Assembly (NCBI GenBank): GCA_965372835.1
Contig: CBDVDV010000001.1
Coordinates: 4,593-68,592, forward strand
DNA length: 64,000 bases
Source: an uncultured bacterium
Lineage (GTDB): Bacteria > Planctomycetota > DG-23 > CBDVDV01
Direction: 5' to 3'
Shown: positions 56,309 through 59,386 of the stretch, one piece after another
Position numbering within the stretch: position 1 is the stretch's first letter
Layout of the letters: each line of letters opens with the position of its first letter
The notes under the pieces: model-generated
The model's database searches: none
What the model was told of the DNA's origin: nothing
Seen by the model: only the letters and a program-made list of their open reading frames with translations
Program-made: the position numbers and the translations under genes

Positions 56309-57686
56309 GCGCCTTCACTTCGAGCAGTTCACCGTACCCCACGATCTTCCAGTAGATGGGACAGGCGCCATCGCACATCTCGAATAACTCGCACGATTGG
56401 CAGACTTCGTGAGCGTACCGTTTCTCCTGGTAAAACCGGGCCCGCTCACCTCCCCAGACCTCTTCGAAGGGCTGCGTGAGCAGGTTCCCCACCGGCTGGG
56501 TCAGGCTGGAGCAGGGAAGGACGTCGCCGTTGGGGGCCACCGAGAGGAGGCCGTCGCACGCTGCGCACCCCTTGTTCCCCAGGCCTTCGGCCACGGGGTT
56601 GAAGATGCAGTAGGGCGTCGGCGAGTACCAGAGGAACTGCACCCCAACCCTTCGTGCCGCGCGCTTCACTTCCCGGACCACCTCCCCTATCTCGCTGTAA
56701 CTGACCCAGAGTTCCTCGGCTCCCGGCCCTGCTGAGCCACAGGGGATGACCATGTTCATCGAGAAGCGGTCCAGCCCCAACCCCTTCATCAGCGCGGGCA
56801 GTTCCACCAACTCGTCCAGGTTAGCCCTTGTGGCAGTCGTGTTGGTGTGGACGGCGACGCCGGCCCGGCGAAGGTGCTTGACCCCCCTAAGGCTGGCCTC
56901 GAAGGAACCCGGCACCTGAGTAAGACCGTCGTGCGTCGCCGCGGTCACCCCTTCCAGGCTGACCTGGGCACTGTCCAGGCCTGCCCCGCGCAGGCCCTGA
57001 GCCGCCTGAGCGTCGATTAGGGTCCCGTTGGTGATGAGGTTGACTCGCAGCCCCGCCGCCTTGGCGTGGCCGACCAGTTCGACGATGTCGTCGCGCAGCA
57101 TGGGCTCCCCGCCGGTGAAACTGGTGGAGGGTACCTGGGCTTGGTGACGGATGATGTCGAAGATGCGTTTCACCTGGGCCGTGGACATCTCCTCGGTCTC
57201 ATCGTCCTGATGACAACTGCAGGAGGCGTAGCAGAAGAGGCAGGAGAGGTTGCAGCGATAGGTCACAGCCACCTCGCTCAGGACGGGAAGCAGGTTGTAG
57301 GGTCGGCGGAAGGGCACCGTCTCCACGGCCCGCCTCCCCTCCCCTTCTCCCAGACAGCCCACCAGGAGCGCCCGCAGGTCGCAGAAGAAGTGGTGGACGT
57401 CGGCGCACCTGGCCGGGTCGTCGGCGTGAGGCCCGAGGACGTCGAAGACGCTTTCGCCGTCGAGCATCCGCCCCAGGAGTTCGAGGCCGGTACGGTTCAG
57501 TTTGTAGGCCTGGTTGGGAAGGAGAATGAGCAGTTCGTCGGCCTGGCGCACGGCGACGTAAGAGCGGATCTGCCTCACGAACTCATCCGTCCAGCCGATG
57601 TCCACGTGCTCGGCGGCGGGGCTGGGCGTGGAGACCGACGACAGCGGACACCCGTCCCTCACCCCTGATTCCGGTCGCCCGCCCAT
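56280..57686 (-). CDS. Radical SAM enzyme with N-terminal PqqD-like RRE and C-terminal SPASM domain (peptide/protein-modifying maturase)
   Basis: CNLSCLFCY (Cx3Cx2C), GGEP glycine-rich SAM motif, and a SPASM Cys cluster (CGSAG...CIFNP...GCAACDG...LPC...CQSCELFEMCDGAC). N-terminal LLILLPNQAYKLNRTGLELLGRMLDGESV is PqqD/RRE-like. ATG at 57686 overlaps the upstream stop as TGATG; the track's longer ORF to 57770 overlaps the repeat region. Confidence 0.85.
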   Translation of the reverse strand: MGGRPESGVRDGCPLSSVSTPSPAAEHVDIGWTDEFVRQIRSYVAVRQADELLILLPNQAYKLNRTGLELLGRMLDGESVFDVLGPHADDPARCADVHHFFCDLRALLVGCLGEGEGRRAVETVPFRRPYNLLPVLSEVAVTYRCNLSCLFCYASCSCHQDDETEEMSTAQVKRIFDIIRHQAQVPSTSFTGGEPMLRDDIVELVGHAKAAGLRVNLITNGTLIDAQAAQGLRGAGLDSAQVSLEGVTAATHDGLTQVPGSFEASLRGVKHLRRAGVAVHTNTTATRANLDELVELPALMKGLGLDRFSMNMVIPCGSAGPGAEELWVSYSEIGEVVREVKRAARRVGVQFLWYSPTPYCIFNPVAEGLGNKGCAACDGLLSVAPNGDVLPCSSLTQPVGNLLTQPFEEVWGGERARFYQEKRYAHEVCQSCELFEMCDGACPIYWKIVGYGELLEVKAHGQVLPTRT

Positions 57687-59386
57687 CAGTGCGCTCCCCC
57701 GCTCACGCACGCCCCGTGGCAGGCCGAGTGACACGCTGAGTGGCACGCCGAGTGACAGGCACTGTGACACGCTGAGTGACAGGCGTCGTGGCAGGCGGTG
57801 TGGACATAGCAGGCGCTGTGGCAGGCATCGGATTTGATGAAAGCAGCGTAGTTGGTGGCCGCTGCGGGCTGGTGTTCCTCGACGGAGCGTCGCATGCGAT
57901 CGATGCGGTCTCCCCGGTCGTAGTCGTCGTTGTAGTAGTGGTGATAGTAGTACCCGTAGCGGCGGGGATAGCGCTCACCCCAGGCGTACTCATGCTCCTC
58001 GTCCATGTTCTCGGGCGTGGTGGAGCGGGCCAGGGCGGCGAAGAGCCCGCTGTAGTACTTCTTGGTGGCGGGCAGGTCGGAGTCCCAGCACTTGCGCTGG
58101 ACGCCGTCGGATAGTTCGGCGTAGAGCCCGTTGAGCCGCCTCTGGGAGAGGGTGCCGTCGGCCTGGACGGTGTCGAGGAAGAGTTTCTCGTAGGAGTTTC
58201 GGGGTTGGTAGCGAAGGGAGGTGCGCTCGATGGTGAGGGGATCCTCGCTACGGATGTAGAGGGCCCCCCGCTGCTCCAGGTCGGCGCAGATGAGGCAGGT
58301 GATGGTGCTCAAGGGGATGTCCAAGAGCAGCCCCGCCTCGATGACGTTCAGGCGCGCGATCTTCCCCTTCTTGCGGAAGGTGGCCACCTTGATTTTGGGT
58401 GGCACCCAGATGTTGCTGTCCCAGCGTACCTCCTCCAGCGCTTCGCCCGCTTGCTGCAAAGACCCGTGCTTGAGACCCATGGCCACCACGGCAGCCACCA
58501 CCAGCACCACCACCGCCAGCACGGCCGCCAAAGGAATCCCCTTGCCCAGTTTCTTGACCGCCCCGGGGATTCGGCCTTTCTCGATTCTCGCCCCTACACC
58601 GACCGCTTCCTCGGCGCGGGTGCTGCCGAGCGTGGGGAAATACCTTGCGGCGATGTACTGCTGGACGAGGAAGTGGAACTCCTTCGGTGCCGACTTCTTG
58701 TGCAAGAGGATGGTGAGCCAGTTCTTGCCCTGGTAGGGCGTGGCCCGGTAGTCGATCTTGTACTGCTCGTTCATGAACTTCTCAGTGCGGAAGGTGACCT
58801 CCTCGAGGAACTCGGGTGCGACCTTGAGCACGTTCCCTTCGGCCGCCACGCGTTCGGGCGGCACCTCGATGGGGTAGTGGACGTAGACGGTGTAGTGCTC
58901 CAGCGCTTCCGCCCGTTGTACGGGTGCCCAACCCAGGACGACCAGTTGACCCAGGCCCGGGGCCTCCGTCAGTCCCAGGTTCTTACTGGCCACCAGGTCG
59001 GCGGCATAGTGGACGATGTAGGTGGTTTCCCCTGGCCCGAAGGCCTGTTTTCCGGCCAGCACTACGTCGTACTTACGGTCCGAGACGTGGGCGATGGAGA
59101 GGGGGTAACGGCGCCCACCGGCTTGGGCGTGGGAGGTCTCGAAGTTGAAGACCGGGGTCTCCTGCATCCCTTCCAGGTAGAAGCCGTGCATCTTGCCGCT
59201 GGTGACGGTCCAGCGCAATTTGTAGACGATGTCGGCCTTGCCGTCCTGGCGCAGCGACAGATCCACCTCCACCCAATGCAGTTTCGCGGAGACGGCTGCC
59301 TGGGCCGTCGGCGCCAGGACCCAGAGGAGCGCCACGACCAGGGCCGGCAGTAGTAGTCGACGGACTTCAAGCGCTCGCCTGAACAC
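57686..59386 (-). CDS. Signal-peptide/TM protein (DUF2207-like architecture) ending in a tandem (Ala-Cys-His-Ser)n repeat; candidate substrate of the adjacent radical SAM enzyme
   Basis: Signal peptide [30 protein letters not shown]. TM helix [22 protein letters not shown]. Tyr/His-rich segment. C-terminal [48 protein letters not shown]. Confidence 0.8.
   Translation of the reverse strand: [566 protein letters not shown]
57700..57832 (-). repeat. Imperfect tandem 12-nt repeats encoding (ACHS)n
   Basis: Plus-strand units such as gagtgacaggca / ctgtgacacgct / gagtgacaggcg / tcgtggcaggcg. Synonymous variation between units keeps the peptide repeat exact. Confidence 0.8.

Follow-up and report, generated by a model that had tools for sequence, protein, structure and literature searches.

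What holds an exact four-residue peptide repeat in place at the end of a protein when no two of its DNA units are identical? This question is raised by a minus-strand gene in a 64,000-nucleotide (nt) stretch of DNA from an uncultured bacterium of the Planctomycetota (assembly GCA_965372835.1, contig CBDVDV010000001.1; hereafter the window), whose 566-amino-acid (aa) product ends in a Cys- and His-rich tail containing (ACHS)5. An earlier note on this DNA, made from the sequence alone, had proposed that the repeat is kept by selection as a substrate or metal-binding module. Our analysis supports selection, and the proposed function is sharpened by the near-constant adjacency of the tail gene to a gene for a radical S-adenosylmethionine (SAM)/SPASM enzyme. 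We propose that the tail, in general form (Ala-Cys-His-x)n, is probably a substrate of the adjoining enzyme, which would modify it once per unit, and that the modified tail would stay on the membrane protein that carries it.

The interval 57686-57832, to which the repeat had been assigned, is exact: it holds the last 48 codons and the stop codon of the minus-strand open reading frame (ORF) 57686-59386, with position 57832 as the first base of Ser519 and 57686 as the last base of the stop codon. Within it, (ACHS)5 is embedded in a ten-unit xCxx array, the C-terminus reads ACVSGGAH*, and the last 46 residues of the protein contain 10 Cys and 10 His. An exact four-residue unit repeated five times cannot have arisen by chance. 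The elements of the gene and its tail are as follows.

57689..59386, minus strand: coding sequence of the 566-aa tail protein, from the ORF list and its translation; stop codon at 57686-57688
57827..57853, minus strand: pre-array segment NYAAFIKSD, aa 512-520; family consensus [YF]-x-x-F-x-x-S in an alignment of 24 tails
57701..57826, minus strand: Cys array, aa 521-562, with 10 Cys; closed by the run (ACHS)5-ACHG-ACVS
57725..57784, minus strand: the five exact ACHS units, aa 535-554, examined by codon table and a codon-usage equilibrium test
57689..57700, minus strand: C-terminal cap GGAH; family form ACVSGG[AGS][HR] or ACVSSGH

The DNA of the five ACHS units is GCCTGTCACTCA, GCGTGTCACAGT, GCCTGTCACTCG, GCGTGCCACTCA and GCGTGTCACTCG. 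None of the ten possible pairs is identical and all differences are synonymous, in agreement with the codon variation that the earlier note had described. Its examples were partly wrong: Ala is encoded by gcc or gcg throughout the array and gca is absent, and for Ser the cited tca and tcg do occur in the five-unit run, together with agt, whereas agc is confined to ACVS and the first ACHS unit (57817). Cys is tgt or tgc and His is always cac. The units differ by a mean of 2.6 nt of 12 in pairwise comparison, and units simulated from the codon usage of the window genome, taken from nine genes of the window, differ by 2.91 of 12 (P = 0.29 for a simulated value at or below the observed one). Therefore, the units are as different in DNA as synonymous choice permits, i.e. 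they are at synonymous equilibrium. In Tandem Repeats Finder, the array was detected at periods of 12, 24 and 36, with matches of 72-84%.

Comparison with relatives gave the same picture. The closest one, a Logan contig (L209), is 95.6% identical in DNA over 834 nt, and its tail differs at 6 of 144 bases, in each case synonymously. Outside the tail, the protein is 70-84% identical in the relatives L001-L003 and 39% identical in L004 (an 8.2-Mb metagenome chromosome) and L005 (an Armatimonadota metagenome-assembled genome, MAG), and even in the latter two 45 of 47 tail residues are kept while synonymous sites are saturated. Across L001-L005, tail identity is 45-47 of 47 residues versus 39-84% in the remainder of the protein. 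The tail is present and the number of units is the same in L209 and in all five of these relatives, and unit number is also the same in most of the 80 genome loci analysed. The proportion of synonymous differences (pS) in the tail was 0.27-1.04 among relatives with only 0-2 of 47 residues different, and where the nonsynonymous proportion (pN) was not zero, this was chiefly due to switches between TCN and AGY serine codons. These substitution patterns show that very strong purifying selection acts on the peptide sequence of the tail.

The units are also inherited by position. Those at the same position in close relatives differ by 0.6 nt compared with 2.8 nt for other units, and by 1.2 compared with 2.6 nt in a second comparison. 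Since same-position units are the most alike between genomes, the array has been inherited in register, with no turnover by slippage or conversion. Two ORFs overlap the array, one on the plus strand (57598-57837) and one in another minus-strand frame (57703-57993); both were rejected as the selected frame, because synonymous variation tracks the ACHS frame only.

That the repeat is instead a slippage-prone, hypervariable element (a contingency locus), or an artefact of sequencing or assembly, can for practical purposes be dismissed, and for the lineage of the window it is refuted. Some of its expected signs do exist in the wider family. Unit number ranges from 2-3 to 12 among distant members, so that the claim that the repeat is not a hypervariable tandem repeat holds for close relatives with the caveat that copy number varies over deep divergence. 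Among 202 arrays, three (L116, L157 and L183) contain 3-5 consecutive DNA-identical ACHS units, the sole signs of recent slippage or conversion, which thus does happen now and then. In the same arrays, however, only 6.8% of unit pairs with the same peptide are identical in DNA, and 4.1% of adjacent pairs. Gene calls in three very GC-rich relatives (P0141, P0233 and P0164) cross the array in the wrong frame, giving LPQR or PATRPVT repeats; the cause is either a true frameshift or an error of gene calling in a region whose other frames are free of stops. In the window, all five units are distinct at a divergence expected from codon usage, in its relatives the number of units is constant and their positions are kept, and the same array in five independent assemblies argues against an assembly artefact. 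The variable copy number with identical units, or the frameshifted or missing tail in close relatives, that the earlier note had named as grounds for abandoning its view were not found.

Conservation of the array extends through the family. An exhaustive search with the tail protein returned 311 representative homologues at E ≤ 1e-3, and full-length ones end in (ACH[SDNGH])n-ACVSGG[AGS][HR]. With Cys fixed at unit position 2 by definition, Ala occupies position 1 in 97% of units and Val in the remainder; position 3 is His in 87%, replaced by Val in the last unit and by Tyr in early ones; and at position 4 Ser (78%) is followed in frequency by Asp (13%), Gly (5%) and Asn (2%), with Ala also tolerated. 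Arrays most often have 8 uninterrupted units and span 4-12, although a few representatives have 2-3; about 10 Cys lie within the last 60 residues, and in the 24-tail alignment the [YF]-x-x-F-x-x-S segment is conserved ahead of the array. The tail is near-identical in Planctomycetota, Armatimonadota, WOR-3, Fischerbacteria and other groups, and this conservation across phyla points to a core cellular function and not to an antibiotic. One subfamily (L091, L141, L155 and L163) has a tail broken by ACV units and ending in VSGGFR, with the radical SAM gene upstream on the opposite strand.

The tail gene belongs to a cassette of three conserved genes, which encode the tail-bearing membrane protein, the radical SAM/SPASM enzyme and a third, membrane protein.

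56280..57686, minus strand: radical SAM/SPASM enzyme, 468 aa, assigned by Pfam
57684..57688, minus strand: TGATG stop/start overlap, in which the stop codon of the tail gene shares one base with the ATG of the enzyme gene
55178..56308, minus strand: third cassette protein, 376 aa, multi-pass membrane protein with a cytoplasmic C-terminal domain; its gene overlaps the end of the enzyme gene by 29 nt
59465..59854, minus strand: optional first cassette protein, 129 aa, syntenic in L001-L004 and present at 20 of 80 genome loci

We examined the linkage of tail and enzyme in both directions. Starting from the enzyme, a scan of one genome per species identified relatives in at least 577 species genomes, of which the best 80 loci were analysed. 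One locus had no upstream DNA, and at 77 of the remaining 79 the ORF upstream of the enzyme ends in the array. Starting from the tail, metagenome contigs were scanned with a DNA pattern of the tail only, which gave 120 loci, and the enzyme lies directly downstream in 89 of the 103 that could be assessed; in most of the others it is found some 1 kb beyond or divergently upstream. The ORF bearing the tail is a homologue of the 566-aa membrane protein in 87 of 88 cases, and the third cassette gene is present at 72 of 74 assessable loci. Tail and enzyme are thus almost obligate neighbours. The TGATG overlap is kept in five of the six relatives examined, and the string CACTGATG is conserved in L001-L005; translation of the enzyme is thus probably coupled to that of the tail protein. 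The tail gene ends GGG GGA GCG CAC TGA (57684-57700), placing GGGGGAG 8-14 nt before the enzyme ATG, and the Gly-Gly codons of the cap may double as the ribosome-binding site of the enzyme gene.

The genomes with enzyme relatives fall under about 18 labels of phylum level: Armatimonadota, Planctomycetota, Omnitrophota, Elusimicrobiota, Lentisphaerae, Kiritimatiellae, Verrucomicrobia, Sumerlaeota, Abditibacteriota, Acidobacteriota, Spirochaetes, WOR-3, Hydrogenedentes, Riflebacteria, Fischerbacteria, Firestonebacteria, Auribacterota and a Clostridia MAG. Carriers of the cassette are mostly uncultivated lineages. Among the matches listed, the enzyme of the closest species-level genome is 59-61% identical to that of the window, and closer relatives were found on metagenome contigs only.

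The enzyme itself matches the Pfam families Radical_SAM (PF04055, 2.4e-25) and SPASM (PF13186, 2.1e-09) and had 3008 homologues among the scored candidates. It possesses both the radical SAM motif and the full set of SPASM auxiliary-cluster cysteines.

57231..57254, minus strand: CX3CX2C motif, C145/C149/C152, invariant in a 12-sequence alignment
56361..56609, minus strand: SPASM region with invariant C360, C374, C377, C392, C429, C432, C438 and C442, from the alignment and Pfam SPASM
57357..57599, minus strand: N-terminal domain resembling a RiPP (ribosomally synthesised and post-translationally modified peptide) recognition element (RRE), i.e. PqqD-like, aa ~30-110; AlphaFold (AF2) predicted local distance difference test (pLDDT) 80-94 and profile match

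In the Foldseek search, the best structural matches of the enzyme model were the peptide maturases SkfB (5e-13) and SuiB (1.8e-11), with the whole SuiB chain aligned. No NCBIfam family was matched at cut-off, and PqqE (123 bits), MftC (117 bits), StsB (109 bits) and PapB (77 bits) all scored below theirs. AF2 models residues 32-108 as one helix followed by three strands and then three more helices. The best Protein Data Bank (PDB) match to a profile of this domain was the lasso-peptide RRE TfuB1, at a weak E = 0.025; a divergent relative of the enzyme has a weak Pfam PqqD match, and the window enzyme matched PqqD in neither Pfam nor NCBIfam. Together, the arrangement of strands and helices, TfuB1, the SuiB alignment and the relative's PqqD match lend weak support to calling the N-terminal domain RRE-like. 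Other identities for the enzyme were considered and set aside. PADLOC matches to viperin reflect generic radical SAM similarity, and formylglycine formation of the kind catalysed by anaerobic sulfatase-maturating enzymes was rejected because a C-x-P/A-x-R motif is missing and the enzyme has the putative RRE-like domain. Three further Cys are invariant in 12 diverse homologues, C111, C156 and C158, the last two directly after the radical SAM motif (CYASCSC), and these may provide an additional site for a metal or cluster.

The tail protein has no Pfam or NCBIfam family, and a PDB sequence search gave no match. Its relatives are named "hypothetical protein" in the databases, apart from one JGI record that describes a cluster member as a Skp family chaperone. 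Despite the hundreds of relatives, a word-index search with the 566-aa protein returned zero matches, probably because low-complexity words filled the candidate list. The AF2 model (mean pLDDT 78) divides the protein into the following parts.

59303..59386, minus strand: signal peptide or anchor, aa 1-28, from a reading of the sequence; AF2 helix 2-28
58649..59290, minus strand: putative extracytoplasmic beta-sandwich, aa 33-246; AF2 pLDDT >90, export predicted
58430..58531, minus strand: transmembrane helix, aa 286-319; AF2 helix and hydrophobic stretch
58019..58345, minus strand: predicted cytoplasmic winged-helix-like domain, aa 348-456; AF2 pLDDT ~90, near-invariant W-D-x-D..A-T..Y

Foldseek matched the beta-sandwich to ribophorin I (6s7t_E) and to the N-domains of M1 aminopeptidases. 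In Pfam, DUF2207 matched the N-terminal part at 16 bits (E = 0.015) against a gathering threshold of 24.4, and the protein is thus no member of that family. It resembles DUF2207/ribophorin-I-like proteins in its predicted layout of a signal peptide, an extracytoplasmic beta-sandwich, a single transmembrane helix and a cytoplasmic C-terminal part, whereas only its own family has the winged-helix-like domain and the Cys-His tail. The columns W327, P330, L346, P383, G411, D437 and A440 are invariant. A signal peptide followed by one transmembrane helix would place the tail in the cytoplasm. Attachment of c-type heme, with CHSACH read as CX3CH, is unlikely for a tail predicted to be cytoplasmic whose motifs overlap every four residues, and a C-terminal sorting signal was ruled out because the C-terminus lacks a transmembrane segment.

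The first and third cassette proteins, like the tail protein, matched no family in Pfam, NCBIfam or PADLOC. Two proteins join parts of the cassette. P0239 combines the third cassette protein with the beta-sandwich from the N-terminus of the tail protein (hhalign probability 95.5%), and P0187 carries the C-terminal domain of the third protein. These fusions suggest that the tail and third proteins act together in one membrane complex; they could instead be chimeras of gene calling or assembly. No protease, peptidase, exporter or transporter gene was conserved at the cassette loci examined, and so a modified tail would probably stay on the membrane protein.

We propose the following model. The N-terminal beta-sandwich would be exported by Sec and the single transmembrane helix inserted, leaving the winged-helix-like domain and the tail in the cytoplasm. 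There, the RRE-like domain of the enzyme would bind the [YF]xxFxxS segment ahead of the array, a candidate recognition sequence, and the enzyme would install one modification per four-residue unit, i.e. about 8-10 per protein. By precedent of SPASM enzymes acting on Cys-rich peptides, a Cys-derived thioether cross-link is the leading candidate for the chemistry; a His-centred H-x-A cross-link of the cyclophane type would fit the pattern of conservation equally well. Position 4 tolerates Ser, Asp, Asn, Gly and Ala, so neither the acceptor nor the chemistry can be read from the sequence. The modified tail may become a rigid ladder of Cys and His, which would bind metal or carry redox equivalents in concert with the third membrane protein.

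Several observations count against such a modified tail. The top hidden Markov model (HMM) matches of the enzyme are the heme-modifying AhbD (167.6 bits), NirJ2 (151.7 bits) and NirJ (134.5 bits) and not peptide maturases, although with cut-offs of 500 or more the enzyme belongs to none of these families. The RRE assignment is weak, given the TfuB1 E-value and the missing Pfam PqqD match. At two enzyme loci (L046 and L062), no tail gene was found in the 1-2 kb of upstream DNA available. AF2 draws the tail as a helix at a pLDDT of ~40, and hence the modelled tail is without structural support; the only basis for placing it in the cytoplasm is the signal peptide together with one transmembrane helix. 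The leader, protease and exporter of classical RiPP logic are absent, and the carrier is a 566-aa membrane protein. Finally, the Cys/His composition would also suit a plain metal-binding tail. In that case the tail would bind Zn, Fe, Ni, Cu or an Fe-S cluster without modification, and the radical SAM enzyme would have a different target or modify another part of the complex. The density of Cys and His in the last 46 residues fits this, as does a period of four, which would put the Cys on one slowly winding face of a helix such as the low-confidence one drawn by AF2; that the best HMM matches of the enzyme are AhbD and NirJ, which are SPASM enzymes with non-peptide substrates, also points this way. 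We consider an unmodified metal tail the main alternative but unlikely, since such tails usually tolerate drift in spacing and number, whereas here Ala is kept at 97% with strict register and a conserved ACVSGGxH cap. It also leaves unexplained why the tail gene is a near-obligate neighbour of, and overlaps by stop and start codon with, the gene of an enzyme with a putative RRE-like domain. Moreover, metal binding is compatible with modification, as a modified tail could bind metal too.

Substrate status could also mean that the tail is a multi-core precursor, in which the modified units or the whole tail are cleaved off and released as a peptide or peptide-derived cofactor, in the manner of pyrroloquinoline quinone (PQQ) or mycofactocin. 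PqqE and MftC are among the better HMM matches of the enzyme, and repeated cores are known from other radical SAM systems. This is improbable, as proteases, peptidases and exporters are all missing from the conserved cassette. In 87 of 88 cases the tail is borne by a conserved membrane protein of 500-600 aa, and never by a short peptide, and unit number is held tightly at 8-10, which the dosage of a released product would not need. A tail that is modified and stays on its protein therefore remains the reading we prefer.

Radical SAM/SPASM enzymes are mostly known for small secreted peptides or peptide-derived cofactors, and four kinds of known system invite comparison. The only NCBIfam likeness of the tail is to TIGR04117 (Syntroph_Cxxx), the "Cys-Xaa-Xaa-Xaa repeat radical SAM target protein", which has a CXXX-repeat maturase as its partner. 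Both have a C-terminal Cys array of period four and are predicted targets of a neighbouring radical SAM enzyme. Among the 24 tails, 22 matched this model at E ≤ 1 (best 2.3e-4), with scores of 15-18 bits against a cut-off of 50, and TIGR04117 describes a paralogous family of ~98-residue proteins, whereas the carrier here is a 500-600-aa membrane protein with conserved domains of its own. By sequence, the resemblance is thus one of kind and not of membership. An ACGX-repeat peptide is the partner of the TIGR04340 radical SAM/SPASM protein, and this system likewise places a tandem four-residue unit starting Ala-Cys beside a radical SAM/SPASM gene. However, position 3 is Gly there and His here, the tail gave no match to an ACGX peptide model at E ≤ 10, and the enzyme scored 104 bits with TIGR04340 against a cut-off of 400, outside the family.

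The order of a putative RRE-like domain, radical SAM domain and SPASM domain would be shared with the thioether-forming SPASM maturases SkfB, CteB, PapB and QhpD. These act on Cys-rich and in some cases repeated substrates, with the pairs CteB/SCIFF, PapB/CX3D repeats and QhpD/QhpC, and QhpC, a protein subunit, keeps its cross-links without being released as a peptide. The sequence similarity to these enzymes is generic (PapB 77 bits, StsB 109 bits), and the tail differs in having no evident separate acceptor region. Triceptide radical SAM/SPASM systems form three-residue cyclophanes on repeated aromatic-x-x motifs. Each tail unit offers a tandem H-x-A in which His and Ala are conserved and the middle residue varies, which follows the aromatic-x-x pattern as a resemblance only. 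In contrast to triceptide precursors, which do not need Cys, the tail always has a Cys between the motifs, and a XyeB-type model was not among the 25 best NCBIfam matches of the enzyme.

A radical SAM/SPASM enzyme with a Cys-repeat target is therefore of a known kind. The novelty lies in the apparent target, the tail of a large membrane protein that is widely conserved, has a conserved membrane partner and comes without release machinery. We found no published description of the tail or the cassette in a search that did not cover most subscription journals and is thus not proof of absence. We tentatively put forward a broader proposal, which we regard as a real possibility falling short of probable: that the cassette is a new post-translational modification system spread over many phyla, in which the enzyme cross-links the cytoplasmic Cys-His ladder of a receptor-like protein into a protein-borne metal or redox module. 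If so, RiPP-type chemistry would be in housekeeping use on a large protein together with a conserved partner membrane protein. A confirmed modification would add a new class of target and possibly new chemistry on Cys-His units.

The window contains the following further features.

13978-14070: tRNA-Ser(GGA)
18179-20128, minus strand: CcmF
21795-22059: bacterial large signal recognition particle (SRP) RNA
27700-29892, plus strand: PMT_2 glycosyltransferase
39538-42780, plus strand: DUF4175 protein, 1080 aa
42969-46439, plus strand: DnaE
47124-47198: tRNA-Gly(CCC)
53898-55094, plus strand: AZOBR_p60025-family surface glycopolymer protein, below cut-off
60007-60546, minus strand: Big_5 Ig-like domain protein

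The window, with DnaE, CcmF, the SRP RNA and two tRNAs, is chromosomal, and the cassette is set amid its housekeeping and envelope genes.

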